From Candidatus Falkowbacteria bacterium (GTDB taxonomy: Bacteria > Patescibacteriota > Patescibacteriia > UBA11705 > JABHMO01), in NCBI GenBank assembly GCA_018693855.1, contig JABHMO010000043.1, positions 72,154-136,153 on the forward strand: 64,000 nt of DNA. Reading direction: 5' to 3'. The position numbers and the translations under genes are program-made. Shown piece after piece: positions 10,926 through 46,292 of this stretch; within the stretch, counting starts at the first letter, position 1; each line of letters starts with the position of its first letter. Under the pieces are notes generated by a model that was given only the letters and a program-made list of their open reading frames with translations, was not told where the DNA came from and ran no database searches.

Positions 10926-11088
10926 CGATGCTAATTTGCGAATTATGCGAATGCTGCGAACGCTTCGCCATGCTAATTTGCGAATTACGCGAATAGTTAA
11001 TATTCGTATCATTAGAGTAATTCGCAAATTAGCATCCCAGTACATTTTCGCATCATTCGCATAACATTCGCGGATTTGCATCGGTTTA
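10926..11088. repeat. Copy 1 of a roughly 160-bp imperfect palindromic intergenic element (MITE/REP-like)
   Basis: It contains GCTAATTTGCGAATTA(C/T)GCGAATA…TATTCGTA…TAATTCGCAAATTAGC. It fills the nfu-iscS spacer exactly and is near-identical to the copies at about 35929-36080, 36417-36535 and 46128-46292. Confidence 0.8.
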
Positions 11089-11313
11089 TATTTTTTCAAC
11101 ACCACTCACCTCTGGTATTTGTTTTTTAAGATAAGTTTCTATTCCTTGGTGAAGAGTAATTTCTGCCATGGGACAACCGTGGCATGCACCGGTTAATTTT
11201 ACCTTTACAATCCCCTCCTCCGTTACTTCAACAAATTCAACGTCTCCCCCATCTGCTTGTAGTGAAGGTCGAATTTCGTTTAGAACTTCTTGTATTTTCT
11301 TTTCGTCTATCAT
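11086..11313 (-). CDS. NifU-like C-terminal domain protein (Nfu-type Fe-S cluster carrier)
   Basis: It encodes 75 aa with a CxxC motif (GACHGCPMAEITL) characteristic of the Nfu/NifU C-terminal domain. Confidence 0.7.
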   Translation of the reverse strand: MIDEKKIQEVLNEIRPSLQADGGDVEFVEVTEEGIVKVKLTGACHGCPMAEITLHQGIETYLKKQIPEVSGVEKI

Positions 11314-11320
11314 AATTATA

Positions 11321-11362
11321 GTGAATCGAAGTAAATCGCAGTAAAGCGAAGTAAATCGAAGC
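11321..11362. repeat. Tandem array of 10-bp units (GTAAATCGAA-like) filling the iscU-nfu spacer
   Basis: The units are gtgaatcgaa, gtaaatcgca, gtaaagcgaa and gtaaatcgaa. The same unit family occurs at 40051-40110, 41891-41930 and 60821-60869. Confidence 0.75.
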
Positions 11363-11366
11363 TAGA

Positions 11367-11747
11367 TTATTTTTCTTTATTTTTATAATTAGTTATAGCG
11401 CTCTGTAATCCTTCTTCCGCTAGGATTGAACAGTGATATTTTACAGCGGGCACATCACCTCCTAAATGAGCGACTACATCGTCCTTTGTAATTGCTAACG
11501 CTTGATCAAAGGTTTTCCCTTTTGCAAGTTCAGTCAAAGCAGAGGAAGCTGCGATCGCAGCAGCACATCCAAGTGTTTCAAATTTAACATCTTTAATAAC
11601 TTCCTTATCTTTATCAACTTTAATATATATTTTCATGATGTCTCCACATTTAATATTTCCAACCTCACCAACTGCGTCAGCATCTTTAATAACACCTTGA
11701 TTTCGAGGTTTCTTAAAATGATCGAGTAATGTTTCACTATATTTCAT
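11367..11747 (-). CDS. iscU: Fe-S cluster assembly scaffold, IscU/NifU N-terminal domain
   Basis: It encodes 126 aa with three conserved Cys (…GNIKCGD…, LGCAAA…, …HCSILA…). Confidence 0.85.
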   Translation of the reverse strand: MKYSETLLDHFKKPRNQGVIKDADAVGEVGNIKCGDIMKIYIKVDKDKEVIKDVKFETLGCAAAIAASSALTELAKGKTFDQALAITKDDVVAHLGGDVPAVKYHCSILAEEGLQSAITNYKNKEK

Positions 11748-11829
11748 ATATGTTATGTTAAGAAATTTAATTTAAATTTAGATTCTCACTTTAATCTTTC
11801 AACTTTTTACTTTAATCTTTTCCCTATAT

Positions 11830-12213
11830 TTATAATGAGTTTAATGTTTTATTTTTTAGAACTTTTTCCAATGATTTATAGATTTCTACCCAGATACGAT
11901 GGACAGAGCAACCACCAGGTTTACAAACAGCTCCGTCAGCACATTTATACGGTTTAACATCACCTTCCAAAACGATGATAACATCAAAAAGTTTAATTTG
12001 TCCGGCTGGTTTAGCTAAATAGTATCCGCCCTTTTTACCAAGATCAGCTTTTACGATTTTGGCTTTTTTTAATGAGGCAAACATTCTTTCTAGATAAGCT
12101 AATGAAATCTTTTCTTCTTTTGCGACAGACGCCAAAGAAACCGCTTTTTTACCGGTTTTATCTAGCTGACTCAGGGCTCGCAAGCCATACTCTGTTCTAG
12201 TTGAAAATTTCAT
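11830..12213 (-). CDS. iscR: Rrf2-family transcriptional regulator (IscR-like)
   Basis: It has an N-terminal wHTH (RTEYGLRAL) and a Cys cluster (KCADGAVCKPGGCSVH), and is the first gene of the isc-like operon. Confidence 0.8.
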   Translation of the reverse strand: MKFSTRTEYGLRALSQLDKTGKKAVSLASVAKEEKISLAYLERMFASLKKAKIVKADLGKKGGYYLAKPAGQIKLFDVIIVLEGDVKPYKCADGAVCKPGGCSVHRIWVEIYKSLEKVLKNKTLNSL

Positions 12214-12242
12214 AATGCCGACTTAATTAGTAGGTTAAAGAC

Positions 12243-12271
12243 ATCATAACAATTTTGTAAAAAATTGTCAA
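12243..12271 (-). promoter_or_regulatory. Sigma70-type promoter for iscR (TTGACA-17-TATGAT on the minus strand)
   Basis: On the plus strand the -35 box is tgtcaa at 12266-12271 and the -10 box is atcata at 12243-12248, with a 17-nt spacer. It lies about 30 nt upstream of the iscR start. Confidence 0.55.
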
Positions 12272-12322
12272 TAATAAAAACAGCGCTGTTATTTACAGCC
12301 CTGTTACTTTTTATAAAAGTGA

Positions 12323-12745
12323 CTAGGTGCTTGGCATCATCACAGAGCACCAATCTTTTGAATCAACCGGTCGCTGCAATACGTCAAACCTATGTAGAGT
12401 ACCTTTTCCCGTCCTTGCATCATAGAATCCATTAAGAATCATCACTTTCAGGCTTAAACCGTCTTCACTCAGTATTTGTGGAGTAACACAGACGATTTGC
12501 AAGTCCCGTATTCTCACCAAGGATGACCACCTTGAACATCCAAGTATAAACAATTCAACCCTTTTTGATGTTTTATTCATTTTGTCTGATTCCACAATTC
12601 TAAAAATTTTGGACCTCCTACGAGTCAATGCTCGAAAAAAAGATCGTCCACGAGGCCCCTTACCTACTATCTCAAAAGGATCGAACGGAAAGTCAAAAAT
12701 ACAAGATGCTTTTTTTATAGGCAATTCAAGCTGGTTCCAAGTCAT
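12323..12745 (-). CDS. Hypothetical protein (140 aa); could alternatively be a non-coding or pseudogenic segment
   Basis: It has an AAGGAG Shine-Dalgarno 7 nt before the ATG, which is atypical for this genome. Local GC is elevated and there is no recognisable domain. An overlapping plus-strand ORF at 12582-12833 has equally atypical composition. A minus-strand promoter lies at about 12850 and a terminator at about 12285. Confidence 0.25.
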   Translation of the reverse strand: MTWNQLELPIKKASCIFDFPFDPFEIVGKGPRGRSFFRALTRRRSKIFRIVESDKMNKTSKRVELFILGCSRWSSLVRIRDLQIVCVTPQILSEDGLSLKVMILNGFYDARTGKGTLHRFDVLQRPVDSKDWCSVMMPST

Positions 12746-12893
12746 AACAATCTCCTTTAATCTAACTGATGTTGTTTATGCTACAACATGGATTATCTTT
12801 TTAGACCGAATATATAAGGTTACACAAAAATAACAAATTTGTCAATATACAAAAAAATCGCCTAACATGACGATTCATTTGTAATTATTTAAG

Positions 12894-13730
12894 TTATTTC
12901 TTGATAATCAAAATCCTCGCTTCACCACGCAGAATACTCATTGCTTTTTGCTCATCTGTCATATCAGCTTCGTAAAGTCGGATTGGTTCATCATTCTCAT
13001 CTTCTGGTAGATCATGGATTGCGTTTAGAACTGTTTTGAATTTGAATTTATAGCCTCTCCCACTCATAATACCAACGTCATTTGTAATAAACTGATCACC
13101 ATCATAGCCTCTTATTAAAATATAGTGATAGATTGGACCGAGGTTACTATAGTATGGATTTCCGAGTAGACGACCAGCTGTTGGTACAATTACAAGATTA
13201 CCATCAGCTAACTGATTTTTTATATTATCTAAACTGATGTCGTCAGTAATCTCAGTATTTAAGTTATAATACTCTCGCGCAATCTGATCCACTTCCGCGA
13301 GTGAAGTATCAGTATATGAACCGAATTTATCCATCTGCCAATCAACAACTGATTTGATTTCCTCATCCATCTGATCAGCTGTAATCGTTTGATTATTAAA
13401 GTAACGATGAGCTAAAATCAAAACTGCCTCTTCACATGCTTCCTGATATGGCATCCCCCAATTTCGATGTGGAGCTTGCGATTGGAATGGAACATCTAAA
13501 TCAATCATTGCTGCTGATAAATTTTCTTCTAAAACAGGATCCTCAACTTGATCAGCAGGTTCAACGTCTTCATCGTTACTAATTTCCACTGCGTCATTTT
13601 CATCTTGAAGTTCAGTTTCCTCAATTTTGGGGTCATTAGTACCACTTTCTTCCACAACAAAGTTCTCTGACTCATTAGTACAGGCAGTCAGAGAAAAAAC
13701 TAGTAAAATTAGTATAAATAGTTGCTTCAT
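12894..13730 (-). CDS. Lipoprotein with a C39-like (papain-fold) cysteine peptidase domain
   Basis: It has a signal peptide with a lipobox (LTAC) and an acidic low-complexity linker. The C-terminal domain has a Q…C (QEAC) and His (GPIYHY) arrangement resembling the Peptidase_C39-like family. Confidence 0.45.
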   Translation of the reverse strand: MKQLFILILLVFSLTACTNESENFVVEESGTNDPKIEETELQDENDAVEISNDEDVEPADQVEDPVLEENLSAAMIDLDVPFQSQAPHRNWGMPYQEACEEAVLILAHRYFNNQTITADQMDEEIKSVVDWQMDKFGSYTDTSLAEVDQIAREYYNLNTEITDDISLDNIKNQLADGNLVIVPTAGRLLGNPYYSNLGPIYHYILIRGYDGDQFITNDVGIMSGRGYKFKFKTVLNAIHDLPEDENDEPIRLYEADMTDEQKAMSILRGEARILIIKK

Positions 13731-13770
13731 AGTTACATTTTACTACAGATCGATAAATAACACAATCAGC

Positions 13771-13799
13771 TTGACATCTTCATTGAAATAATGTAGAAT
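13771..13799 (+). promoter_or_regulatory. Sigma70-type promoter for rpmA (TTGACA-17-TAGAAT)
   Basis: TTGACA sits at 13771-13776, a 17-nt spacer follows, and TAGAAT sits at 13794-13799. Confidence 0.6.
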
Positions 13800-13886
13800 G
13801 TTGATACACGTAAATATAAATTGGTTAAACGACTTAGCAGACCTCTTATTGGTCTTCTATAGCCCTCTTTAGCCTTCTTAATAAGT

Positions 13887-14171
13887 ATGGCACATAAAAA
13901 GGCAGGTGGAAGTACTAGTAATGGACGAGATTCCAATGCTCAACGGCTTGGTGTAAAAAGATACGGTGGACAAACTGTTGTATCTGGTAATATCTTGGTC
14001 CGACAACGAGGTACAAAATTTCACCCAGGTGAAAATGTAATGAAAGGTAAAGATGACACCCTTTTTGCAACTATCAACGGAATCGTTGAATTCACACATA
14101 AAAAAGTCAAAAAGTTCACTGGTAGATTAACCAAAAGAACTTTCATCAATATCGTTCCAGAAAAAAAATAA
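13887..14171 (+). CDS. rpmA: 50S ribosomal protein L27
   Basis: The protein begins [28 protein letters not shown]…[11 protein letters not shown], a clear L27 signature. Confidence 0.95.
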
Positions 14172-14183
14172 CTTCTTAAAAAA

Positions 14184-14212
14184 CTCAGCCGTAGGGCTGG
14201 GTTTTTTGTTTG
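14184..14212 (+). terminator. Intrinsic terminator after rpmA
   Basis: The hairpin CAGCCgtagGGCTG is followed by GGTTTTTTG. Confidence 0.65.
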
Positions 14213-14222
14213 ATGAATTTCA

Positions 14223-14876
14223 TTATGGCAGTTTATCAATCATATTTGTAAATTCTGAATTAAGGGATGACCAAGGATAATTCTGCCAACTTTCAGCAAT
14301 GCCGTGTTTAGAAGGGTTTCTATGGATGTAATTAAGTTTGTTCATTAAATCAGATTTATTCCTTGCATATCTATCATGAAAAGATTTATGCCATTTGAAT
14401 TTAGGATATTCCATCAAAGAATGCTTATTTATAAAATCATTTTTAAGTCTAGATAGTCTATTCCATCTATTCATTTGTTTTTCATATTGATTAATTAAAG
14501 AAATATCAATAGAATCTTTATTATCCCGAGAATGAGAATCTTTATTATCCTGAGAATGCGAGTCTTTATTATCCCGAGAATGCGGATTCTCGGGTACTGA
14601 AAGTTGATTATGGGAGAGGATTCTATTGATATTTTGGGAAGAATTCTTTTTTATTGATTTCATGATATTTGAAATGGATTCATCATTTGATCTAATGAGC
14701 ATATGAAAATGTTCTAAATTTATAATAAATGCAAAAAGATCAAAGCCATAATAATCCTTTGATTCTTTTATCTCATCAATTAAGCATCTGCTTAAAATAG
14801 GATTCTCAAAATATTCAATATTTCGAAACGTGTTTGTCGTCGTCAAATAATATTTCCCTTTATAAAAATTCCTCAT
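14223..14876 (-). CDS. REP-associated tyrosine transposase (RAYT) / IS200-like Y1 transposase
   Basis: It has a HuH motif (LEHFHML), and a C-terminal region typical of the IS200/Transposase_17 fold (…DRYARNKSDLMNKLNYIHRNPSKHG…). REP-like palindromes sit at its 5' end and inside the ORF. The start is placed at ATG 14874-14876; the ORF-track GTG start lies within the palindrome. Confidence 0.65.
   Translation of the reverse strand: MRNFYKGKYYLTTTNTFRNIEYFENPILSRCLIDEIKESKDYYGFDLFAFIINLEHFHMLIRSNDESISNIMKSIKKNSSQNINRILSHNQLSVPENPHSRDNKDSHSQDNKDSHSRDNKDSIDISLINQYEKQMNRWNRLSRLKNDFINKHSLMEYPKFKWHKSFHDRYARNKSDLMNKLNYIHRNPSKHGIAESWQNYPWSSLNSEFTNMIDKLP
14523..14594. repeat. Three tandem 24-bp units derived from the REP palindrome, lying inside the RAYT coding sequence
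   Basis: The units are atcccgagaatgagaatctttatt, atcctgagaatgcgagtctttatt and atcccgagaatgcggattctcggg. They encode the repeat HSRDNKDS/HSQDNKDS. Confidence 0.8.
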
Positions 14877-14893
14877 ATCTTTATTAATCAGTA

Positions 14894-14915
14894 CCCGAGA
14901 ATCCGCATTCTCGGG
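14894..14915. repeat. REP-like palindrome CCCGAGAATCCGCATTCTCGGG at the 5' end of the RAYT gene
   Basis: It is a perfect 9-bp-arm palindrome of the same family as the hairpins at 1061-1080, 4293-4316 and 14573-14594. Confidence 0.8.
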
Positions 14916-14949
14916 CACTGATTTGATTTTAATTATTATTAATTATAAC

Positions 14950-14979
14950 TAGGGACAACTTTGTCGTTGTCCCTAAATT
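14950..14979 (-). terminator. Hairpin terminator downstream of the 706-aa secreted protein gene
   Basis: It has perfect 10-bp arms, TAGGGACAAC/GTTGTCCCTA, followed by an AT-rich tract. Confidence 0.45.
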
Positions 14980-14997
14980 TTTGAATAAATTGTGTCA

Positions 14998-17118
14998 TTA
15001 CCAACACTGAATGCCTGGGAACCAAATCTCCCCTTCTCCATTCCCGCCGGCACGGCGATCGAATGGCAAGTTGCACTCAATCGTTGCAACCGTATGGTCA
15101 TAGCATGACCATAATGACGGGTACAGACAAGCACAGTTGAAATCAATCCATGGCTGACCTCGCAAACAGATATCACGAAGCGGGCTGTTGACGGTCACGC
15201 TCGGTGAGCCTATGGCTTCGCCAAAACTGGCGTACCAAGCATATGCCTGCATATCTGCCGGGCAAGTGAACGTGCACGTAACAAGGTCGTCCATACTTGG
15301 ACAATTATCTTGTTCTTCTGGCGAATCAGGCTCCATTTCAGCTTCAGGCTCATCCTCGATCTGATCTTGATCAGGTTGTTGAGGTGTATTACAAACACCA
15401 TTCAGACAACCAAACTGACAAGGAATGATTTCGCGATGGCAATAGCCTTCGTATAGACAGTATCCTGAAAACGAGACCTGATTATTACCATCACAACTGT
15501 CAAACGCATAGCAATCTTGCTCGGTTCGACAGCTAAGACAATGAGATACACCCTGACAAGGATCTTGTTCAGGTTCGATCTCGTCTTCAAGCTCTTCTGG
15601 TTCAGGTTCTGGCTCCACCAAATCCTGATCAGTGAACGTTTCCTGATAATAACACCCTGCCAAACCAAGACAGGTCGCGCCGTCAGGACAAAGTTTCCCT
15701 TCATCCGTAAACGAGTTACAGTTATCATCAAGCCCATTACATGACTCTGTTGCACCGGGATGCATGAGAGGATCTGCGTCATCGCAGTCCCCTTTGTTCA
15801 CAGTATACCCATCATTATCCATATCCATCTCGTTCTCATCATAGCTACCGCCAGTGATGTAGTACGAGTTCAGGCAACGATGAGCCATCTCCATTGTGAT
15901 ATCAGGGTCAAACAGCCGAAAACTGCCTTCTAGCTCGTTCTGATTAGCATGATAGAGGTATTTATCAGCATACCCCATCTCGTTGTATGCTTGCTCAGTT
16001 GAGAATGCCCGCAATCGGCCATTGCCAGAGGCAACGAAAACCACGCCGCGCCCAAATCCGGAAATCGGATAGTTGGGTTTAACAAGGGTGCCGTCACGCA
16101 CGTACAAGGTATCCATCAAGTCACATCGCCAGAAATACTGGTCTTCAGCTTGCTGATCCGTTAAAACTTGCAATCGTTCATCGATTGTCCAGCTTCGGTA
16201 AGCGAATTCTGAAGAGAACTCATACAGAGCGCAGTGACTTGAGTCGTGACTGGCTTTTTCATACAGAAGGATTGTGCCGTCTTCCACTTGGAAGAGTTCA
16301 CGAACTGGTTGCCAATCAACGATGAAACCATCATCGTAACAACTCAGTTCAAGGTCACTGACCTCAATCACCATGTCACGTGGAAAATCATGCGCTTCGA
16401 AAACCTGATCGCTATCGATCAGATTTTTCTTGCCATCAATGAGCACGTATACATCAGACTCGTTGACCGAGCTGATCAAAGCTCCATCTGGATGCCAAGT
16501 CACAACTTGCTCTTCAACGAAGAGTGAAGCACAGTTGGACGCTGTACGCCATGAATTGACGAATGTATCCAAATCGTAGCGATTGAACTGTCCAGCTGTT
16601 CGTCCTGGATCGTGAACAATCACTTCACTGTCGGTCATTCCGATGACGACCATGAAGTGTCCCAGTTTAGCTGTATTCATTTTGATATGAACAGCCACCA
16701 TGACGGGGTTGTCTTTTTCGATCTCCTGCCGGAGTTTATCGAGGTGACAGGCGTTACGTTTGATAACGAAGCCTGTTTGCCAATGATTTTCCAGCAATTT
16801 TTTGAGTTGCCCCATATTGGTTAGGTTGCCGTCATAGTGCTCAGCACCGTAACTTGTTTGCGGGACAATATAGTTGTTGTTATACAGCCAATCGATAGCT
16901 GTTTTCAGATGCTCGACCGTAGGTGAGAAATCTTGGAGATAACTCGCCATGATTAGAGCAGCGGTTGGTCCGCAATTGGAATTAAAACTCCAGTCGCCCG
17001 GAGGCGACTGGGGTAAAAATTGGACTTCGTCCAAGAGGATCTGATTGTTGTTCTCGGCCAAGACCGAACCGGTGATGGACACAAGAATCAGAATGACTAG
17101 AATAGCTACCTTTTTCAT
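14998..17118 (-). CDS. Secreted protein with an N-terminal C39-like cysteine peptidase domain and a C-terminal Cys-rich region of putative metal-binding repeats
   Basis: It has a signal peptide and a Cys/His peptidase arrangement (NSNCGPTAAL…, …GHFMVV…). The C terminus has repeated DCDD…NP…CNG.DDNC-type motifs and acidic PEPEPE linkers. GC content is markedly higher than the genome, and an AGGAG Shine-Dalgarno lies before the ATG. Confidence 0.5.
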   Translation of the reverse strand: MKKVAILVILILVSITGSVLAENNNQILLDEVQFLPQSPPGDWSFNSNCGPTAALIMASYLQDFSPTVEHLKTAIDWLYNNNYIVPQTSYGAEHYDGNLTNMGQLKKLLENHWQTGFVIKRNACHLDKLRQEIEKDNPVMVAVHIKMNTAKLGHFMVVIGMTDSEVIVHDPGRTAGQFNRYDLDTFVNSWRTASNCASLFVEEQVVTWHPDGALISSVNESDVYVLIDGKKNLIDSDQVFEAHDFPRDMVIEVSDLELSCYDDGFIVDWQPVRELFQVEDGTILLYEKASHDSSHCALYEFSSEFAYRSWTIDERLQVLTDQQAEDQYFWRCDLMDTLYVRDGTLVKPNYPISGFGRGVVFVASGNGRLRAFSTEQAYNEMGYADKYLYHANQNELEGSFRLFDPDITMEMAHRCLNSYYITGGSYDENEMDMDNDGYTVNKGDCDDADPLMHPGATESCNGLDDNCNSFTDEGKLCPDGATCLGLAGCYYQETFTDQDLVEPEPEPEELEDEIEPEQDPCQGVSHCLSCRTEQDCYAFDSCDGNNQVSFSGYCLYEGYCHREIIPCQFGCLNGVCNTPQQPDQDQIEDEPEAEMEPDSPEEQDNCPSMDDLVTCTFTCPADMQAYAWYASFGEAIGSPSVTVNSPLRDICLRGQPWIDFNCACLYPSLWSCYDHTVATIECNLPFDRRAGGNGEGEIWFPGIQCW

Positions 17119-17147
17119 GATTTTTCTCCTGTTTGCGTATTGCTAGT

Positions 17148-17777
17148 TTAGAACGAGAAGTTCTGGATGAAGTCTTTGAAAACTTCTTGAGCTTGACCTT
17201 CGTCAACTCCATTCACATGGAGAGCGATGTCGTAGACAAACTCGCCTGATCGGATGAAGTATCTCGGATCACCAAGATAGACGGCGTTGTGAGATGTCGC
17301 TTGGACAGTCTCATTATCGGTCAAAAAACTCAGGTCAACGGTTTCAAAGCCGGTCACGCTATCAGGATAGTACTTCGCGAAGAAGTCATCCCAGCCCTCT
17401 GAGCTTTGAGTTACGTTAACATTGATCAGAGCGTAGTAATTGGTATACTTCTGTGAATTGATCTCACTCTTGCCACTGACTTCGATATAGTAGTCGTCAG
17501 GGGCAGAGCCACCTAGGACAACTTCTTTGTCAGTGTTTTTTACTAGTAAAGAGTAGATCAGCTCATCATTCTCACCATGACGTTGTGCCAACTCGACGAA
17601 CCAGCCGTCTGGGTAGTTGAACTCAAAATCATTTGCAGTGTAAGCAATCCAATCACCGGCTGTAGTAGGCTCGTTGTCTTGCTTGCCTTCTTCGTACCGA
17701 GTACACCCGGAGATGAAGAGAGCTGTAGCGATCACAACGGCTACGATCAAAAAGTTACGAAATTGAAATTTACGCAT
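17148..17777 (-). CDS. Hypothetical lipoprotein
   Basis: Its signal peptide ends in a lipobox (FISGC). The gene is GC-rich and an AAGGAG Shine-Dalgarno lies 9 nt upstream. The start was moved to the internal ATG. Confidence 0.5.
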   Translation of the reverse strand: MRKFQFRNFLIVAVVIATALFISGCTRYEEGKQDNEPTTAGDWIAYTANDFEFNYPDGWFVELAQRHGENDELIYSLLVKNTDKEVVLGGSAPDDYYIEVSGKSEINSQKYTNYYALINVNVTQSSEGWDDFFAKYYPDSVTGFETVDLSFLTDNETVQATSHNAVYLGDPRYFIRSGEFVYDIALHVNGVDEGQAQEVFKDFIQNFSF

Positions 17778-18042
17778 ATCGATTTTCTCCTTTTCGAGGT
17801 TTGTTAGAATGGGTCCTCGTTTTACCCTTAACATACTAACGTTAGCATGCTAAAACTGATTGTCAATGGACAAGAAGGCCACAGCCTTCGTTTCCTATTT
17901 CGATTAAACCACACAAAGATTATTTTCCCCACGAAAATGTTATCCACACTCGTCAGAATATAAAAAACAGCGATTTTACTAAGGGAAAATCGCGTTTTTC
18001 TTGTCGAGGTAGGTCGTCAAGATTTTAGAGTTAAATTATTAC

Positions 18043-18080
18043 AAACAAAAAATCTCGAGTTTTTATCGAGATTTTTTATT
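18043..18080. terminator. Bidirectional hairpin terminator (AAAAATCTCGAG…TCGAGATTTTTT)
   Basis: An 11-bp stem is flanked by A- and T-runs, downstream of the minus-strand gene at 18089-18769. Confidence 0.55.
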
Positions 18081-18088
18081 CTATGAAA

Positions 18089-18923: not shown

Positions 18924-18974
18924 GAAAATGAATAGTAGCTGTAACAAAAACCCCAAGCCTGTGGAGGAAAGATA

Positions 18975-30044: not shown

Positions 30045-30135
30045 AAGCTAAATAAAACAAAAAAATAATTTTGTTCTTTAAACAAATGATTTCACTAAAT
30101 TTATTATACCATAAATTCACTCTTCTAACTAAAAA

Positions 30136-33119: not shown

Positions 33120-33284
33120 AGAATCGCAAGGAGACTATACGGGGCCAGCCCGCAATGTCTACGCATAGCGTTGCTGGCGGGCTAAACGAGGCCATTAAGG
33201 AGGCTAACCCCAAATTATGTCACTCCGGACACGCCTGCCCTCCGTAGTTTTCTAAACGAAGGTGGGATCCGGAGTCTGGCCAAG
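33120..33284. repeat. Composite GC-rich leader/intergenic element (AGAATCGCAAGG-GGCTATA motif, a 52-bp conserved core, and an ACTCCGGA…TCCGGAGT hairpin)
   Basis: The 52-bp core GGGGCCAGCCCGCAATGTCTACGCATAGCGTTGCTGGCGGGCTAAACGAGGC is near-identical at 45446-45500. The AGAATCGCAAGG(R)G(R)CTATA part is shared with the hisS leader at 59231-59272. The hairpin is shared with the element at 57826-57856. Confidence 0.75.
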
Positions 33285-35928: not shown

Positions 35929-36080
35929 GATGCTAATCTGCGAATGACATGCGAATGCCGCGAACGCTTCGCTATGCTAATTTACGAATTACACGAATAA
36001 TAATTATTATTATTCGTATCATTCGCAAGGACATTCGCATCATTCGCATGTCATTCGCAGATTCGCATCGCGTTCCGCGA
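35929..36080. repeat. Copy 2 of the roughly 160-bp palindromic intergenic element
   Basis: It reads ATGCTAATCTGCGAATGACATGCGAATGCCGCGAACGCTTCGCTATGCTAATTTACGAATTACACGAATA…, then TATTCGTATCATTCGCA… It starts 9 bp upstream of the htrA start codon. Confidence 0.8.
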
Positions 36081-36407: not shown

Positions 36408-36416
36408 ATAGACGCG

Positions 36417-36535
36417 ATACTAATCCACGAATGCATGCGAATGATACGAATGCTTCGCTATACTAATTTACGAACTACGCGAATAATTGAGTTCGTGGTG
36501 CGATTATTGGTATCGCGATTAGTATCATTAGTATT
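36417..36535. repeat. Copy 3 (more diverged) of the roughly 160-bp palindromic intergenic element
   Basis: It reads ATACTAATCCACGAATGCATGCGAATGATACGAATGCTTCGCTATACTAATTTACGAACTACGCGAATA… and fills the spacer between nrdG and the small ORF. Confidence 0.7.
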
Positions 36536-36551
36536 ATTTGTATATTAGTAT

Positions 36552-37244: not shown

Positions 37245-37431
37245 AGAAGATTTAAATTACTTGTACCTTTATATGTTCATCTTATCTTGATGAGTTGAGC
37301 AAGTCAAATATTTTAAATTAGCCTCATTGATAGCCTCATATAGCCCCATTAGTATTAAAAAAGCCTAAAGCAATGAGTCTTAAATTTTTAGATACTAAAA
37401 ACTTAGGACTTAAAACTTTAGGCAGAAGCAC

Positions 37432-37578
37432 CTATTCTTTTGTAGCGCAAACTTTATAGTTAGTTCTATCATCAAATTCTGCCTTTTTTCCATTGTTCCA
37501 TCTGTTGATAGGACTTAGATAACCAACGACTCTAGAATAAACCTCGCATTTTGTTCTTTCTAATTTTTGTGAAGCCAT
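37432..37578 (-). CDS. Separate 48-aa ORF encoding the NrdD glycyl-radical motif (C-terminal NrdD fragment)
   Basis: My own translation gives MASQKLERTKCEVYSRVVGYLSPINRWNNGKKAEFDDRTNYKVCATKE. The YSRVVGYL…WNNGKKAEF stretch matches the class III RNR glycyl-radical consensus (E. coli …YSRVTGYLG…WNDGKRAEF). It is absent from the ORF track because it is shorter than 60 aa. Confidence 0.6.
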   Translation of the reverse strand: MASQKLERTKCEVYSRVVGYLSPINRWNNGKKAEFDDRTNYKVCATKE

Positions 37579-37664
37579 AGTAAATAGAAATTGGAAATTA
37601 GAAATTTGAAATCAGGGTAGTCAATCAGACAAATCCTTATTTCAGTTTCATTTCCTATTTATTT

Positions 37665-39833: not shown

Positions 39834-40050
39834 AGATATAGTAATTTAAGATTAATTTTAGAAAATTAGAGAGAAAAAAAACCAGTACCCACTTGTACCT
39901 CAGTTTTCAAACTTTTCTTACCTCTATTTTACCCCATATCGAACCTTACAGCAACTTTCACAAATACTAATTTTATCATCTAAATTTCAATCAAAATCCA
40001 GCGTCGTAAATTTCTACGTTTTAAACTGTGGATAAAGTTGGGAAGCGGAG

Positions 40051-40110
40051 CGAAGTAAATCGAGGTAAATCGAGGTAAATCGGAGTGAATCGCAGTTAAT
40101 CATAATGATT
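40051..40110. repeat. Tandem array of 10-bp units (GTAAATCGAG-like) upstream of nrdD
   Basis: The units include gtaaatcgag x2, gtaaatcgga, gtgaatcgca and gttaatcata. Confidence 0.7.
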
Positions 40111-40246
40111 AATCGATAACTAGAAAAACTAACCTCCTATAGCCTTCTTTGCGACTAAAAAAGCACCCGCAATTTTACTCACGAGCACTTTCATATGATT
40201 AAAGTTCGTACTGTTCGTACATTAGTTCGTAGTTCGTAATATTACC

Positions 40247-41521
40247 CTACATCATCTTCCTCCGAATAAACGCCGGAATCTCCAAATCCTCATCATCAGC
40301 ATTCGCTTCTCCGGGCTTTGAAATGACTTCTTCTGGTTTAATTCTATCAACATCTTTTTCTTCAGGATTTAACGTATCTTGCTCTAACTTCTTGGCATCG
40401 TAACTAAAAGGACTCTGTACTGGAGTAGAAGCTGGTGCAACAGGTGTTGAAACTGGAGCTGGTCGTTCTTCTACTTTTTCTTCCCTTCTCGGTTCTTGAG
40501 CAACGAAGTAATGAGGAGTTTTATCAAGCGCATTATTAGACTGACGAATAATATTGCTTTGCCCAGGAATGTCGTCGAAACCAGTTGCGACAACAGTGAT
40601 CTTTAACTGATCCTTTAGATTTTCATCAACAACCGCTCCAAAGATAATCTTAGCATCACCATCAACTGACTCAGTAATTGATTTCGCAGCTTCACTGACT
40701 TCGTACATTGTTAAATCAGGTCCACCTGTAATTGTAAATAGAATACCTTTTGCTCCTTCAATAGACATTTCGAGCAATGGACTTGAGATAGCAGATTTCG
40801 CAGCTTCAATCGCCCTGTTATCACCTGAAGACTCACCCATTCCCATTAACGCAGAACCACTATCTGACATAATTGTCTTAACATCAGCGTAATCAACGTT
40901 AATTAAACCTGGAAGCGTAATTAATTCTGAAATACCTTGAACACCTTGTCTTAACACTTCATCAACAACTCCGAAAGCTTCAAGTAATGGTGTCTTTTTA
41001 TCAATAATCTGCCAAATTCTATCGTTTGGAATAGTAATTAGTGTATCAACTTTATTTTTAAACTCTTTCAGCGCTTCCTCAGCAATCGTTTTTCTTGGAC
41101 CACCTTCAAATGAGAACGGTTTTGTAACAACAGCAATTGTCAAAGCGCCCAACTCTTTTGCGATTTCAGCGATTTTTGGAGCAGCACCTGAACCAGTTCC
41201 ACCACCAAGACCACAGGTTATAAATACTAAATCAGCACCTTTTAACATTTCACGAATCTCATTTTGAGACTCTTCTGCTGATTTACGACCAACAGCCGGG
41301 TTCATACCAGCGCCAAGCCCTTTTGTGGTGCTTTTACCAATATGAATTTTATTAGAAGCTAAATTAGACTGCAACGCTTGTAGATCAGTATTAGCCACTA
41401 AAAATTCAACCCCTTTGATTCGACATTGAATCATACGATTGATTGCGGCTCCTCCTCCCCCTCCAACACCTACAACTTTGATTTTTGCAAATGTTTGAAT
41501 TTCTGGTTTTACTTCTGGCAT
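40247..41521 (-). CDS. ftsZ: Cell division GTPase FtsZ
   Basis: It has the tubulin signature [10 protein letters not shown] and an N-terminal [13 protein letters not shown], with an acidic and Pro-rich C-terminal tail. Confidence 0.95.
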
Positions 41522-41890
41522 AGATTATAAAGTTTATTAAGTTTAAATAGTTAAAAAAGTTAAAATAGTTTTTAGGTAATTGAGAAAATATAAAAAACAC
41601 AGACAAAAACAAACCATCTTTTGGTTAATCATTTATTTTTGTTATGTGTTTTTGTTTTTACTGACTCTTTATTTTTGTTTTCTAACTTTTTATTTTTTCT
41701 TTTTATTTTTCTAGATATCCCTTTTCAATTATTTAACTTTCATTACCTCAATTTCAACCCAATATCCTCAATTTCAACTTAATCTCCTTTTTTATTTTTG
41801 TTTTATGATTCACAATCTGCTCCGATTTACTGCCGCTTTTATTTTACAGATGTGCTATCGCAGACTAAAGTCGTACGTGAAATTATGGCG

Positions 41891-41930
41891 TTTACTTCGA
41901 TTTACACCGATTCACTTCGATTTACTTCCC
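41891..41930. repeat. Tandem array of 10-bp units (TTTACTTCGA-like) in the ftsA-ftsZ spacer
   Basis: The units are tttacttcga, tttacaccga, ttcacttcga and tttacttccc. These are the reverse-complement orientation of the family at 11321-11362. Confidence 0.7.
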
Positions 41931-41932
41931 AT

Positions 41933-43183
41933 CTACGATACCAAATTCTTAAACCAACCCTTAACTTTCCCCGCAGCATCCTTTACTGACTGTAAATTAT
42001 TCAATGTAAACTTTGACCCACCTGCTCCACCTCCTTGATTAAATCCCCAAAGTACAAGACCAAGTGCTGTGCAGTATGTTGGCTCATTCACCTTATCAAC
42101 CGCTGTATTGAATTTCTTATTTATTCCAAGTGAAACAGGTAACATTGTTTTTCGTTTTGAAACAGGTACAATGCCTGCTAATTTCGAACCTCCACCGATT
42201 AACACGAGTCCTGCTGGTAACAATCCACTTCTGTTTATCTTCTGTAACTCTAAGTCTACTTTTTCAAAGATTTCTTCTGTTCTAGCTTCAATTATTTCAG
42301 CAATATATTTTTTAGAGAAAGCTTGATCATCTCCACCAAAGTCACGTAAGTTGATCTCGTCAGTTTTTTCAAAGCTACTTGGTGAAGCACTTCCAATATC
42401 AAGTTTTATTCGTTCAGAAACATCAAGTGATGTTTGCAATCCAATCGCTAAATCAGCTGTAATATGATCAGATCCTACTGGTAAAACAGAAATATGGATT
42501 AGATCACCCTCTTCATACACTGCCAACTTAGTTGTCGCAGCTCCGATATCAACCAAACAAACTCCTAACTCTTTTTGTCTTACACTTAGAACTGATTCAC
42601 TAGCTGCTAGAGTTCCAAAAACTAAATCATTTATATCAATACCTGCTCGATAAACACATTTCGTAACATTACTAATCTGAGAACTAAGTCCTCGTACAAC
42701 TTGAGTTGTTACTTCCAGCCGAATACCACTCATGCCAACTGGATCCTTCACACCTGTTTGATTATCTATTGAAAATGTTTTTGGAATGACATGCAGTACT
42801 TCATAATTAACAGGAGCTGCCACACTTCGAGCTGCTTCAATAACTCTTTCTACATCAGTCTCTTGAATCTCGCCACTAGTTTTTGTAATAGCAATTACAC
42901 CATTGCTTTCTTGTGATCGGATATGAGATCCACCAACTCCAACGTAAACATTTTCAATTGGCAACCCAATCATTCGTTCAGCTTTTTCTAGGGCAGCAGA
43001 AATACTACTGACAGAATCTTCAATACTAACAATTGAGCCTTTATTAAGACCTTGAGCAGGAACGTCAATAACTCCAATGATGTTAAGTTGTTCACTTTCA
43101 TTGGTTTTGACAATTTGTCCTACAACAATCCTAATATTAGATGACCCAATATCAAGCCCAGCAATGATATGTTCGTTTGCCAT
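41933..43183 (-). CDS. ftsA: Cell division protein FtsA (actin-like ATPase)
   Basis: It has an N-terminal IAGLDIGSSNIR phosphate-1 motif and the FtsA architecture, and lies upstream of ftsZ. Confidence 0.9.
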   Translation of the reverse strand: MANEHIIAGLDIGSSNIRIVVGQIVKTNESEQLNIIGVIDVPAQGLNKGSIVSIEDSVSSISAALEKAERMIGLPIENVYVGVGGSHIRSQESNGVIAITKTSGEIQETDVERVIEAARSVAAPVNYEVLHVIPKTFSIDNQTGVKDPVGMSGIRLEVTTQVVRGLSSQISNVTKCVYRAGIDINDLVFGTLAASESVLSVRQKELGVCLVDIGAATTKLAVYEEGDLIHISVLPVGSDHITADLAIGLQTSLDVSERIKLDIGSASPSSFEKTDEINLRDFGGDDQAFSKKYIAEIIEARTEEIFEKVDLELQKINRSGLLPAGLVLIGGGSKLAGIVPVSKRKTMLPVSLGINKKFNTAVDKVNEPTYCTALGLVLWGFNQGGGAGGSKFTLNNLQSVKDAAGKVKGWFKNLVS

Positions 43184-43337
43184 AATAATAATTTTCTATA
43201 TCTTAAATTATAGTATATTTTTTTGATTCTGCCAAACAAAAACTGTGAACATCAAAAAAGACCTAAAATAGCCTTGAATCAAATTGTTTTGCACACTAAA
43301 TTAGTTCAGGCAAAACAATGTCTTAAATAAAAACTTG

Positions 43338-43700
43338 TTACATTGCAAGAAAATAAGGTAAAAATATGATCAATCCTATAATAACACTAGTTATTGCTGC
43401 GATGAAAACGATTGAGCTCATCACATCCTTTATTTCTTTGACGTAAAGATGAACACGAGGTTTCAACATATCAACAAACCGTTCAAATACAGTGTTGAGC
43501 ATCTCCAAAATAAGAACCATTGCGATCATTAAAATAACTAATGCCCATTCCCAAACTTTTATTTGAAAATAAAAACTTAAAAATAAGACAAAAATACCAG
43601 CAATCAGATGTATCCGAAAATTTTGTTCTCGTTTAATTAACGAACCTAATCCTGAAAAAGAGTACTTAAAACTTTTCAAAAGTCGCTTAAATCTGATCAT
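43338..43700 (-). CDS. dgkA: Diacylglycerol/undecaprenol kinase family protein
   Basis: It encodes 120 aa with three TM helices and the motifs EQNFRIH and EMLNTVFE of the DgkA family. Confidence 0.75.
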   Translation of the reverse strand: MIRFKRLLKSFKYSFSGLGSLIKREQNFRIHLIAGIFVLFLSFYFQIKVWEWALVILMIAMVLILEMLNTVFERFVDMLKPRVHLYVKEIKDVMSSIVFIAAITSVIIGLIIFLPYFLAM

Positions 43701-44118
43701 ATTTATTCAAAATTTTTGTTTCTAAACTTTCCATTTTCTCAGCCTCCTTCTCTTTCATGTGATCATACCCAATAAGATGCAAAAATCCATGTAAAACCAG
43801 GCGGTTCATCTCTTTTTTCAAACTATGCTTCATCTGTTTAGCCTGTTTCTTTGCGACTGATAAACAGACAAGGATTTCACCCAGCGGCTCTTCCCTGCTC
43901 AATCGGTCATCATTCTCAAATGACAAAACATCAGTCACCTGATTTTTCTTTCGGTAAATACTATTAAACTGTTTTATCTTTGTTTCACCAACAATCCCCA
44001 AAGAAACCGTTTCTTCACTACTTTTCTTCGCCTGCTTCTGAGCCAGATTCAACAGTCTTTCCAAACTCCTCCGACAAACATGCGTCTTCGTTGTATTATT
44101 CATCTCTAAATTTATCAT
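43687..44118 (-). CDS. ybeY: rRNA maturation endoribonuclease YbeY
   Basis: It has the HGFLHLIGYDH metal-binding motif and is about 143 aa. Its end overlaps the dgkA start by 14 bp. Confidence 0.85.
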   Translation of the reverse strand: MINLEMNNTTKTHVCRRSLERLLNLAQKQAKKSSEETVSLGIVGETKIKQFNSIYRKKNQVTDVLSFENDDRLSREEPLGEILVCLSVAKKQAKQMKHSLKKEMNRLVLHGFLHLIGYDHMKEKEAEKMESLETKILNKYDQI

Positions 44119-44238
44119 ATTGCGGATGTGCGGATCATTTGCAGATTATGCAGATTAATATTTTGATAAAGTAAAATAATGTCTATTACAATTAGATATG
44201 ACTTTAAGAATGGGATTCCAATCCGCAATATCTGCAAC

Positions 44239-45435
44239 CTAAGGGCACGCCGCAAACTCACAATCCGGCCCAGTCCTCCCAACAGAACTACCATCCGGAC
44301 AGATCTTAGCTTCCTCGGTACAAGCAATTACATTATCAATCGGTTCATCTGGCGCAACAGGTGCTTCAGCAAAGTCCCCTTCAATAAAGTTAAAACTATC
44401 AACCATCATCTTAAACATTGCAGGATAAAAAGCCTCTACTTTCTGACCAATTCCATAGTTGATAACGTAGACCATGTCTTGCTTTGCAATGAAAACAGTA
44501 AATCCATCCGGTGATTCAATAACTGGGATATCGTAATGATTGTTGTAAAATTTCAACTGAGTTCTAGTTGCTCGTGGATTCAACCGTAGATACCAATCAA
44601 CAATAGATTCTTCAGAATTCTTGTTCGCAATGAATACATTAACAAACTCATTATTACTTGAAGTAAACAGTACATCTTCAGTATCAAGAGGATCAAGTGA
44701 ATCAGCTAACCAACTTTTTGGATATAGAAGTTTATAACTGTACATTGTATTCTCATACTCTGCAACAAAATCACCTTCTTCTAACTTTACCATACTTTGA
44801 GTTGGACTGTAAAAATTCATTAACTCAGAACCATCAGCATAACCATCACCATCTGAATCAGCAATTGTTGCGTTTGTGTTAATTAAAAGTTCTTCCTGAT
44901 CAGTCAGACCATCATTATCACTATCAACTGATGCCATAACATTTACATTGAATCGATTTGCATAACTATAATCAAACTCTTTCGCAGGTACTAAATTATC
45001 AGGTAAAACATCATCAACTGGATCATCCGCTGGCTCCTCTGTATCTAATTCATCAGGTTGTGGTTCATCAGCATCATCTTGATCAACGACTGGATCAACT
45101 GTCTGAGGTTCGAAAACAACTTGATTTTGATTATCTTCACTAGAAGGTAAATATGTATAGACAAGTAATCCAATTGAAGCTAAAACTAAAATTGCTAGAA
45201 TTACCATGATAAGAATAACACCCAGTTTACTCTTCTTATGTTTAGGTGCGCCGTTAGAAGGTTTAGAAGCAGTTGCAGTCCCCTTTGATCCTTTTGTCGC
45301 AGAAACTGTTTTGTCCCCTAAATAATACTCCATGGGCATAGTATGAACTTGCTCATCTTGTGGAGATTTTTCTTGTTCTTCTTTAAGCGGTTTATTTACT
45401 TTATTGTCTAATTTTGGTTGTTCATCGTCAAACAT
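44239..45435 (-). CDS. Single-pass membrane protein with TSP3-like Ca-binding repeats and a C-terminal Cys-containing region
   Basis: It has a TM helix (GVILIMVILAILVLASIGLL), an acidic linker, and DSDNDGLTDQEE / DSDGDGYADGSE repeats. The start was moved to ATG 45433-45435 because the ORF-track N terminus is encoded by the 52-bp repeat element. Confidence 0.55.
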   Translation of the reverse strand: MFDDEQPKLDNKVNKPLKEEQEKSPQDEQVHTMPMEYYLGDKTVSATKGSKGTATASKPSNGAPKHKKSKLGVILIMVILAILVLASIGLLVYTYLPSSEDNQNQVVFEPQTVDPVVDQDDADEPQPDELDTEEPADDPVDDVLPDNLVPAKEFDYSYANRFNVNVMASVDSDNDGLTDQEELLINTNATIADSDGDGYADGSELMNFYSPTQSMVKLEEGDFVAEYENTMYSYKLLYPKSWLADSLDPLDTEDVLFTSSNNEFVNVFIANKNSEESIVDWYLRLNPRATRTQLKFYNNHYDIPVIESPDGFTVFIAKQDMVYVINYGIGQKVEAFYPAMFKMMVDSFNFIEGDFAEAPVAPDEPIDNVIACTEEAKICPDGSSVGRTGPDCEFAACP

Positions 45436-45522
45436 AGGAAAAGGGGCCAGCCCGCAATGTCTACGCATAGCGTTGCTGGCGGGGCTAAACGAGGCTATAC
45501 GAGGCTATAAAAGGCTTTCGGA
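45436..45522. repeat. Second copy of the 52-bp GC-rich core plus GAGGCTATA direct repeats, immediately upstream of the start codon
   Basis: The sequence GGGGCCAGCCCGCAATGTCTACGCATAGCGTTGCTGGCGGGGCTAAACGAGGCTATACGAGGCTATAAAAGGC is near-identical to 33140-33192. Confidence 0.75.
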
Positions 45523-45534
45523 TAGTCCTTGTAA

Positions 45535-46119
45535 TTAATTTATATTCAAATTGTCTTTAGCTTCTTGAAAATTCAATAACTTACCTGCCCCGTTGGGGTT
45601 GTATCCGGATTGAACCTCTTGTCCGTCAAGATAACCATCATTGTCACTATCTGTATCATTTGGATCTGTTTTATAAAACATAATCTCATCTCGATCAAAA
45701 AGTCCATCATTATCACTGTCAGCCTTGCGAGGATTTGTTTTATACTGTTTTTCTTCCTCGTTAGTTAATCCATCAAAATCAAAATCATCACCACTTGCTT
45801 CTTCAATCTGTTTTTTGACTTCATCAACATCTTCATTCATTCCTAAACCTTCAGTTTGATCAACCTGCGCTTCTTCATAGTCTTCTGGGACTGGAATATA
45901 CGTCTGATGATAAACTTTATTTCGATAATAAGCCAAAGCTCCTCCAGCAATTACAACTACTACTACAATAACAATAACAATCTTCCATGGAAACTTTTTC
46001 TTTTCTAAAACAGGTTCTGGACTAACATCCGAACTTTCAACTTGAGATTGTACTGGCGCTTCTTTCGGCCCAGCATCAACCTCATCAAAAATATCCTCAA
46101 CTTGTTTATCTTCATCCAT
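45535..46119 (-). CDS. Single-pass membrane protein with TSP3-like Ca-binding repeats
   Basis: It has a TM helix (WKIVIVIVVVVVIAGGALAYY) and DSDNDGLFDRDE / DSDNDGYLDGQE repeats. It is paralogous to 29217-30044 and 44239-45435. Confidence 0.6.
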   Translation of the reverse strand: MDEDKQVEDIFDEVDAGPKEAPVQSQVESSDVSPEPVLEKKKFPWKIVIVIVVVVVIAGGALAYYRNKVYHQTYIPVPEDYEEAQVDQTEGLGMNEDVDEVKKQIEEASGDDFDFDGLTNEEEKQYKTNPRKADSDNDGLFDRDEIMFYKTDPNDTDSDNDGYLDGQEVQSGYNPNGAGKLLNFQEAKDNLNIN

Positions 46120-46127
46120 ATATATTG

Positions 46128-46292
46128 ATGCTAATCTGCTAATGATATGCGAATGCCGCGAACGCTTCGCTATGCTAATTTACGAATTACACAAATAGTT
46201 AACTATTCGTAGTATTCGTGTAATTCGCAAATTAGCATCTCAGCAATTTTCGTATCATTCGCATGCTTTTCGTGGATTAGCATCGGTTTACT
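46128..46292. repeat. Copy 4 of the roughly 160-bp palindromic intergenic element
   Basis: It is near-identical to copies 1 and 2. It spans from 9 bp upstream of the TSP3 gene start to the TAA stop of the 2830-aa gene; the stop lies inside the element terminus …CATCGGTTTA, as also seen in copy 1 with nfu. Confidence 0.8.

Follow-up and report, generated by a model that had tools for sequence, protein, structure and literature searches.

What is a palindromic element of about 160 bp, present in four copies between the genes of a Candidatus Falkowbacteria contig, and what might it do there? The stretch that raised this question, hereafter the window, comprises 64,000 nt (GenBank assembly GCA_018693855.1, contig JABHMO010000043.1, positions 72,154 to 136,153). 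The genomes of Patescibacteria (candidate phyla radiation, CPR) measure about 1 Mb, leave very short spacers between genes and are usually thought to be poor in repetitive or selfish DNA. A sequence-only reading of the window had described the element as site-specific and similar to a MITE (a miniature inverted-repeat transposable element), or as a mobile promoter or terminator cassette, with each copy placed exactly between a stop codon and the next start codon. The answer that we prefer, and to which we give an even chance of being right, is that the element is a non-coding, non-autonomous palindromic repeat that resides in intergenic spacers and is transcribed as an intercistronic stem. It would resemble MITEs, REPINs (hairpin-forming doublets of repetitive extragenic palindromic, REP, sequences) and the intervening sequences (IVSs) of 23S rRNA. 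In kind it is familiar, since the repeat is a new family of the well-known bacterial intergenic palindromic repeats and no new kind of system.

The window holds four copies of one hairpin-forming repeat

All four copies (W1 to W4, Table 1) were found at about the positions first reported and are members of one hairpin-forming, non-coding repeat of about 160 bp, with individual lengths of 136-164 bp. A 23-nt degenerate core, GCTTCGCYATRCTAATTTRCGAA, occurred once in each copy, four times in total, and its expected number in 100 dinucleotide-preserving shuffles was 0.00 when up to 3 mismatches were allowed. On the plus strand the element starts with GATGCTAAT, continues with seven (G/A)C(G/T)AAT units and a short AT-rich centre, and closes with the inverse units (ATTCGC/ATTAGC) and GATTAGCATC. 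Across the copies the units are spaced at 8, 9-11, 9, 16, 8 and 9 nt, and conservation is higher in the hexamers than in the intervening linkers. The 16-nt step is occupied by a 13-nt palindrome, GCGAACGCTTCGC, which is confined to the core half and is invariant in nine of the ten aligned copies; only one arm bears an extra 13-nt hairpin, GCGAAGCGTTCGC. Each of the two inverted arms is about 70 nt long and consists of a run of units of about 9 bp (GCTAAT/GCGAAT). The element is a nested palindrome with two modules of about 30 nt per arm, rather than a simple inverted repeat. Terminal inverted repeats (GATGCTAATC...GATTAGCATC) are present, and the complementary arms extend to as much as 41 nt with 88% complementarity (in W2). 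The loop measures 5-15 nt in the window copies, with no PF05635-type open reading frame (ORF) inside.

The minimum free energy of folding was -70.9 kcal/mol for W1 (z -7.7), -76.2 kcal/mol for W2 (z -10.4) and -68.5 kcal/mol for W4 (z -9.1), with near-perfect helices of at least 22 bp within the long stems, and only W3 folded weakly (-33.5 kcal/mol, z -3.0). The palindromic architecture that had been read from the letters was thus borne out as long hairpins in three copies and in a degraded form in W3. When all 34 window spacers were scanned, the three intact copies were by far the most structured (z -9 to -13), and no other spacer went beyond about -5.6. Rfam gave no match in the window at the gathering threshold and only chance-level matches at E up to 1. 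The small ORFs within the element are spurious, as had been suspected, and two of them are called as genes in public databases; with the spurious peptides as queries, only 2 proteins were found in the protein database.

The halves are unequal and the better-kept half faces the next gene

The element stands close to the start codon that follows it. From the terminal GATGC to the ATG, 7-8 non-conserved nucleotides were counted in all four window copies, namely 8 nt in W1 (iscS), W2 (htrA) and W3 (the 90-aa membrane ORF) and 7 nt in W4 (the TSP3-repeat gene), which replaces the 9-13 bp given earlier. On the other side, nfu, nrdG and the gene of the 2830-aa protein stop 0-3 nt from W1, W3 and W4, respectively, and these three spacers contain almost only the element. 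W2 is separated from its upstream gene by 66 nt that include a weak terminator-like hairpin. In W1 and W4 the upstream TAA (11086-11088 of nfu and 46288-46290 of the 2830-aa gene) overlaps the extended terminus, TAAACCGATGC, as had been observed, but the idea that the element supplies this codon did not hold. The Nfu orthologue of an element-free relative ends at the identical residue with TAA (GVEKI-TAA), and the nfu stop is therefore native. Site specificity is thus only half of the picture: the orientation is constant and the distance of 7-8 nt holds throughout the window, but copies elsewhere are farther from the following ATG, by 10 nt at uvrD, 30 nt at pilin and about 95 nt for the half-copy in contig L006. 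The placement of all four copies on the same side of minus-strand genes is correct but uninformative, because all genes from 9.7 to 60.6 kb are on the minus strand.

The first reading had overlooked the inequality of the two halves, as well as further spacer families of short-unit arrays and palindromes and a transposase gene in the window. The start-proximal half is 88-90% identical between copies, compared with 64-77% for the distal half. In nhmmer searches with a hidden Markov model (HMM) of the core half, proximal halves scored 76-86 bits and distal arms 6-56 bits (84.6 versus 48.7 in W1); the model was built from proximal halves, and the pairwise identities are thus the fairer measure of the asymmetry. 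W3 has kept its core half (76 bits) and lost its distal half to a degenerate arm (5.7 bits), and its units carry G-to-A variants (ACTAAT/ACGAAT). The L006 half-copy also retains the proximal half. The core half faced the downstream gene in six of six informative independent sites (P about 0.03, two-sided, under random orientation), sites in which the directions of transcription and replication are not separable.

Spread and persistence in related lineages

Comparison with other contigs shows that the element has spread to new sites, that it persists for a long time at some of them and that the units of any one genome drift together. When metagenomes were scanned with the core, six contigs with flanks unrelated to the window came back, and copies that were 84-92% identical were present in at least five other sites with unrelated flanks, at the pilin, uvrD and ndk loci (Table 1). 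The same units also form one-armed arrays just outside the window, where they precede dcd by 2 nt and topA by 21 nt. An exact-pattern scan gave 0 matches in 185,579 species-representative genomes, 0 in viral contigs and 0 in plasmids. The metagenome scan missed a Ga0209042 contig (L031) from the same metagenome that carries the 90-aa gene with spacer lengths as in the window; the collection therefore looks incomplete, and copy number is not derivable from the scan. The window sequence is also contained in many ENA/JGI assemblies and in the NCBI metagenome-assembled genome GCA_018656425.1. Its HtrA record at NCBI is named 'Candidatus Falkowbacteria bacterium', and the nearest homologues are from Patescibacteria.

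Syntenic loci were recovered through IscS and HtrA homologues. The nfu-iscS spacer was without the GCGAAT element in three relatives, L023 (80% IscS identity), L024 (76%) and L012 (63%), and held an unrelated module in L023 and a different small palindrome of TACGGAT units in L024. W1 thus marks a presence/absence difference between related genomes and, because the syntenic spacers of the relatives have no element, the simplest reading is that it was gained in the window lineage. The two spacers flanking the 90-aa gene (nrdG to 90-aa and 90-aa to htrA) behaved differently, in that elements of the same family were found in a 79% relative (L026), with terminal units ATTCGCATC at 5 and 11 nt from the ATG, and in a 62% relative (L027), with CTACGAAT units at 1 nt from the htrA ATG. 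Copies within one genome share lineage-specific unit variants, and this is concerted evolution, like that of REPIN populations or of co-evolving factor-site pairs.

On one 66-kb contig (L024/L027) a 45-nt array recurs after nrdD, after nrdG, after a 91-aa gene beside htrA and inside nifU. At the last site (L024 9225-9270) the 45-nt ACGAAT array lies in frame in a surface loop of NifU/IscU, which has 151 aa compared with 126 aa in the window, and NifU orthologues have no insert at this position. Since the same array stands at several sites, including a coding loop, it is direct evidence that arrays of the GCGAAT-element family move. The earlier view of a dispersed non-coding element with terminal inverted repeats, not arising from segmental duplication, was upheld by the copies with unrelated flanks, by the three element-free nfu-iscS spacers and by the nifU array.

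Gene cassettes that resemble intervening sequences

At the site in L027 that is orthologous to W2, a 130-aa PDDEXK_3 gene lies between ACGAAT arms of 39 nt with 97% complementarity. Inverted arrays of 28-31 nt that belong to other unit families enclose PF05635 (23S-rRNA-IVS protein) genes in L023 and L020, and solo arrays that match the arms of these PF05635 cassettes at 96-100% identity are found in the window, in the spacers upstream of rpsU, rpmA and nifU. The bracketed PF05635 and PDDEXK_3 genes have the architecture of classical 23S rRNA IVSs. In Coxiella burnetii the IVS is selfish and 428 nt long; its inverted repeats form a 28-bp stem that is cut by RNase III, and tandem heptamers are found just before its PF05635 ORF (PMC4990558). 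As in an IVS, inverted repeats bound the insertion, a long stem would form in the transcript and short tandem repeats stand before a start codon, and related loci carry PF05635 and PD-(D/E)XK genes between arrays of the families seen in window spacers. Unlike an IVS, the GCGAAT element has no ORF, lies in mRNA spacers instead of rRNA helices and has arms of about 70 nt built from repeated units, and its cleavage by RNase III is presumed. In appearance it is such a cassette devoid of an ORF, or else a palindrome that offers its centre to such genes as a landing site.

A REP-associated tyrosine transposase and its own hairpin

The window encodes a REP-associated tyrosine transposase (RAYT; Table 1), the single RAYT of the genome, which is syntenic beside rpmA in L023 and L024. 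It is preceded by a 20-nt REP-like hairpin, CCGAGAATNNNCATTCTCGG, that occurs at four places in the window (1061-1080, 4294-4313, 14574-14593 and 14895-14914). At 1061 and 4294 the hairpin is followed by a T-run and lies between convergent genes, and in L024 it takes the form of a compensatory variant, CCGAGATT..AATCTCGG. The RAYT gene contains an in-frame insert of three 24-bp tandem copies of its hairpin motif. The CCGAGAATNNNCATTCTCGG hairpin, and not the GCGAAT element, is the obvious cognate REP of the RAYT. The candidates for mobilising the GCGAAT element are the window RAYT and a nuclease cargo gene of the type that a related lineage has between the arms. Contigs L008 and L010 match at 100% as far as the 3' foot of GCGAAGCGTTCGC and differ beyond it, a junction that gives a hint of hairpin-directed cleavage and for which an assembly artefact is equally possible. 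As a separate observation, the gatB-miaA spacer (1049-1271) is unusually structured beyond its terminator hairpin (z -5.6), with no Rfam match.

A proposed role for the transcribed stem and the points against it

A consensus scan found no sense-strand sigma-70 promoter in the element (-35 and -10 hexamers 16-18 nt apart) and no terminator formed by it as a stem plus T-run; only a 7-pair antisense sub-stem was called, and no copy was followed by a T-run. Because the element lies between co-directional genes and has no promoter or terminator inside, it is probably co-transcribed with its neighbours. Canonical promoters do occur elsewhere, such as the TTGACA-17-TATGAT before rrf2, the gene with which the rrf2-nifU-nfu-iscS row opens, and W1 is accordingly most simply seen as intercistronic transcribed sequence. 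The transcript would fold into a stem of at least 60 bp that reaches from the upstream stop codon, or from near it, to 7-8 nt before the next AUG. Such a stem may be tolerated, and possibly exploited, since a double-strand-specific RNase (RNase III) could cut it, by analogy with 23S rRNA IVSs. Cutting would separate the cistrons and leave a downstream message that lacks a Shine-Dalgarno (SD) sequence with a short structured 5' end. Selection or strand-specific transposition may preserve the start-proximal half, always directed at the gene downstream, and leave the distal half to decay.

Several observations weigh against a mobile repeat that acts as an RNA stem. No target-site duplication was seen when the flanks of eight copies were compared by eye. 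The MITE-like character proposed at first stood as far as short length, lack of coding sequence, multiple copies, terminal inverted repeats and presence/absence between relatives are concerned, and gave way on this point. The element fails the tests that define a MITE or a REPIN, having neither a target duplication nor a REP doublet, and the repeat that flanks the RAYT (CCGAGAAT..ATTCTCGG at 14895-14914 and 14574-14593) differs from the GCGAAT element. No autonomous partner with GCGAAT arms was present in the approximately 250 kb examined, and no rnc gene in the sequence examined. No empty/filled polymorphism was found among near-identical strains, since every contig read (5 of the 16 for iscS and 10 of the 19 for the 90-aa gene) had the same spacers. 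The copies all differ from each other (8-16% divergence), which means that no recent burst has taken place. The consensus fold has 51 pairs, of which 5 carry pairing-preserving changes on both sides, and this is weak support for an RNA structure, since the changes are explicable by shared ancestry of copies that are few and related. Fold energies showed no consistent difference between sense and antisense strands, so RNA-specific selection was rejected, and the equal folding of both strands gives no pointer to RNA over single-stranded DNA or a cruciform. Finally, the long retention at the htrA locus and the constant spacing of 7-8 nt suit a host regulatory function just as well.

Alternative explanations

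One such function would be that of an operator array, in which phased (G/A)CGAAT units are bound by a regulatory protein, such as a response regulator or a repressor of direct or inverted repeats, whose regulon would comprise htrA and the 90-aa membrane protein among others, and in which the palindrome reflects dimeric or oligomeric binding. The distance of 8-11 bp between units is about one helical turn, hexamers are better conserved than linkers, and a hairpin energy with no strand preference suits a role at the DNA level. Three lineages also retain the family upstream of htrA and of the 90-aa gene, each with unit variants of its own, as factor-operator co-evolution would predict. However, the genes downstream of the copies are functionally unrelated (iscS, htrA, the TSP3 protein, pilin, uvrD, dcd and topA), and the iscS copy is absent from close relatives. 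Nor does an operator account for the same array in frame within coding sequence and on either side of a nuclease gene, where it forms the arms, and the six or more unit families in the spacers of one small genome would require equally many regulators. We consider an operator unlikely.

We attach the same low likelihood to a cis-acting leader of the host, by which the proximal half would be a selected 5'-untranslated module for SD-less genes, stabilising the message or positioning the ribosome, and would have spread by recombination with the distal arm as an incidental partner. The core half is always beside the start codon, at 7-8 nt in four of four window copies, and one-armed arrays in the same orientation stand 2 nt (dcd) and 21 nt (topA) from the ATG, to which uvrD can be added at 10 nt. 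About three quarters of 83 genes have no SD-like tetramer, 61 of the 83 have T at -1, and the decay of the distal half next to a proximal half conserved at 88-90% is what such a module would predict. Against this, the ATG is 30 nt away from the pilin copy and about 95 nt away from that in L006, a stem of -70 kcal/mol beside the initiation region is more likely to hinder than to help, and arrays inside coding sequence are left unexplained; complementarity to rRNA was not identified either, by reasoning alone without a 16S sequence.

A true REPIN, with the GCGAAGCGTTCGC hairpin as the REP recognised by the RAYT at 14223-14918, appears slightly less probable still. The RAYT scores above its curated cutoff and is syntenic in relatives, the two inverted halves form a hairpin, the single orientation of the window copies fits strand-specific transposition of single strands, and the identity of L008 and L010 ends exactly at the 3' foot of the small hairpin. 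That junction could be an assembly artefact, though, and in three lineages the RAYT is flanked by CCGAGAAT..ATTCTCGG or CCGAGATT..AATCTCGG instead of GCGAAT units. The small hairpin is moreover present in one half only, and there is consequently no REP doublet.

The portable promoter or terminator cassette of the first reading is very improbable. Its intergenic location would suit it, TAGCAT at the terminus looks like a -10 hexamer at a distance of 8-9 nt from the ATG, and the one-armed array upstream of dcd holds TTGTGA-18-TATAAT, but the consensus scan described above revealed neither a sense-strand promoter nor a terminator, and the spacing from TTCGCA-like sequences to TAGCAT is 12-14 or 21-23 nt. 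Upstream of the element, L006, L008 and L011 have another, distinct hairpin that is followed by a T-run and that, by eye, reads as a terminator. A local segmental duplication or chance similarity, for which the distance of only 486 bp between W2 and W3 could speak, has practically no probability left, given copies with unrelated flanks on other contigs and in other lineages and 0 chance matches in shuffles.

Some further identities were tried and rejected. A leaderless promoter with the terminal TAGCAT as its -10 was dismissed because there was no independent TANNNT peak, the peak at -15 being made by the four copies themselves. An integron attC site does not agree with the termini (TAAACCGATGC/GCATCGGTTTA, not RYYYAAC...GTTRRRY) or with the flanking genes, which are housekeeping genes, and the Pfam assignments seen for window genes included no integrase. 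By-eye comparison with CIRCE, the Cheo/SOS box, IscR sites and the CpxR-like GTAAA-N5-GTAAA gave none that fits the GCGAAT element. DnaA boxes were not enriched in the spacers (20 found, 21.6 expected).

Relation to known repeat families

A literature search on repeats, promoters and leaderless transcription in Patescibacteria/CPR found nothing relevant. Correia elements of Neisseria are bacterial MITEs that are intergenic and co-transcribed, and their stem is an RNase III substrate that can affect neighbouring expression. The GCGAAT element agrees with them in a size of 100-160 bp, terminal inverted repeats and intergenic location, but it has no TA or other target duplication, no sequence similarity and no detected integration host factor (IHF) site or outward promoter, and its arms are tandem short units. 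Mycobacterial interspersed repetitive units (MIRUs) occupy intercistronic operon spacers, in which they reach from the stop codon on one side to the start codon on the other, and are direct tandem repeats with small ORFs. The element shares the spacers bounded by stop and start, but it is palindromic and unrelated in sequence. Rickettsia palindromic elements (RPEs) can insert in frame into genes, as the 45-nt nifU array has done, but they are mostly intragenic and likewise have no sequence relationship to the element. The short tandemly repeated repetitive (STRR) sequences of cyanobacteria are simple direct heptamer arrays with no fixed relation to start codons; they resemble the present repeats as arrays of 7-10-nt units in intergenic DNA, with several families per genome, and differ in the host phylum. 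The term STRR is found in PMC2670836.

REPINs and REP sequences with their RAYTs (Bertels & Rainey; PMC3337134, PMC3116915) are like the element in being extragenic hairpin doublets of inverted halves, in vertical persistence, in coherence within a genome and in a single syntenic RAYT. They differ in that the halves here are not short imperfect palindromes, the small hairpin is found in one half, the RAYT is flanked by another hairpin and a GTAG/CGTC tag is not consistently present in the element.

Other repeats and features of the spacers

The window contains further repeats. A second family of palindromic arrays, with TTACAAAT units, occupies 7155-7260 in the mraY-murD spacer (-37 kcal/mol, z -8.4); it recurs in the orthologous spacer of the 80% relative (L023 13700-13830, with another loop) and at an unrelated locus (L009 9841-9939). 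Many spacers end in three to five tandem units of 9-10 nt set against the start codon, from families that include TTCGATTTAC, TAGCCCTCT and AGTTAAAAA (Table 1), and the TTCGATTTAC array before nfu is kept in the 80% relative (L023 9505-9555). A 41-nt repeat with a GCCAGC...GCTGGC hairpin is present with 100% identity at 33141-33181 and 45443-45483, where the second copy overlaps the annotated start of a 409-aa TSP3 gene, and a relative (L010 310-345) has the compensatory stem variant GCCTGC...GCAGGC. A spacer module, GATTAATGACGCTTA(G/T)ACAG...CCCCAGACCCC, was found at the non-orthologous sites 30080-30125 of the window and L023 9925-9970.

The C-terminal glycyl-radical segment of NrdD forms a separate ORF of about 48 aa, located 86-100 nt past the stop of the main nrdD ORF, with short-unit arrays in the gap. 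Among the 83 gene starts of the window, L023 and L024, a SD-like tetramer at -12/-11 was present in about a quarter, and rpsU (bS21, 57515-57766) retained a strong AAGGAG. This combination of SD-poor starts with AAGGAG on rpsU may resemble the Bacteroidota pattern.

The ftsZ gene (40247-41521) lies between 44-nt inverted arrays of GTAAATCGA units (40036-40079 and 41891-41934, 80% complementary), and its 5' arm begins at the stop codon of ftsA. Pairing between these arrays could enclose the complete ftsZ message in a long-range stem. A broader idea, which we regard as speculative and improbable, is a genome-wide punctuation of transcripts, of which the GCGAAT palindrome would be one instance. 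Paired inverted arrays, either adjacent or around genes such as ftsZ and those of PF05635 and PD-(D/E)XK proteins, would form double-stranded RNA stems that are cut to define messages, the resulting leaders would suit SD-independent initiation, and the arrays would owe both their origin and their movement to IVS-like cassettes or to the RAYT.

Table 1. Copies of the GCGAAT element and other features, with positions in the window or in the contig named
Feature	Contig	Coordinates	Strand	Context
W1, full palindromic element	window	10927-11088	minus	fills the nfu-iscS spacer
W1, conserved start-proximal core half	window	10927-10997	minus	7 (G/A)C(G/T)AAT units, spacing 8, 9, 9, 16, 8, 9 nt
W1, small internal palindrome GCGAACGCTTCGC	window	10956-10968		5-bp stem
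W2	window	35929-36075	minus	spacer from 90-aa ORF to htrA; internal deletion in distal arm
W2, small palindrome GCGAACGCTTCGC	window	35960-35972		
W3	window	36416-36551	minus	spacer from nrdG (radical SAM activase) to 90-aa ORF
W3, small-palindrome variant ACGAATGCTTCGC	window	36446-36458		
W4	window	46127-46290	minus	spacer from 2830-aa surface protein to 194-aa TSP3-repeat gene; perfect 10-bp termini GATGCTAATC/GATTAGCATC
W4, small palindrome GCGAACGCTTCGC	window	46158-46170		
Full copy	L007/L009			between pilC and pilin gene
Copy	L008			between rpmE (L31) with terminator and the same pilin 5' end
Half-copy	L006			after ndk and terminator
Truncated copy	L010			cut off exactly at the foot of the small palindrome
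Full copy	L011 (also L020-L022)			between divergent genes, one of them uvrD
RAYT	window	14223-14918	minus	NF047646, 85.5 bits (cutoff 80); HUH and Y..NP motifs
IVS-like cassette in mRNA spacer	L027	4504-4999		small PDDEXK_3 gene
IVS-like cassette in mRNA spacer	L023	2856-3352		small PF05635 gene
IVS-like cassette in mRNA spacer	L020	43-484		small PF05635 gene
Arrays abutting start codons	window	11314-11366, 60820-60866, 13854-13879, 57787-57814, 59240-59270, 45483-45516, 41525-41570, 56945-56968		
Split nrdD	window	37245-37664		
Split nrdD	L027	3059-3323		same split in the 62% relative
Split nrdD	L028	244-476		

Implications for compact genomes

Several spacers of the window consist solely of repeat, in a type of genome thought to be poor in repeats. 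The repeat families combine persistence across lineages, concerted drift, invasion of a coding loop in one relative and arms shared with IVS-type cassettes, and they occur together with a RAYT that has its own REP hairpin. In practice such repeats break metagenome assemblies, possibly make chimeras of them, and generate spurious gene calls. If the stems are processed, the element would reveal by what means an ultra-compact genome lives with selfish DNA or punctuates its transcripts with it, and this could help to explain how many genes that lack an SD sequence are expressed.

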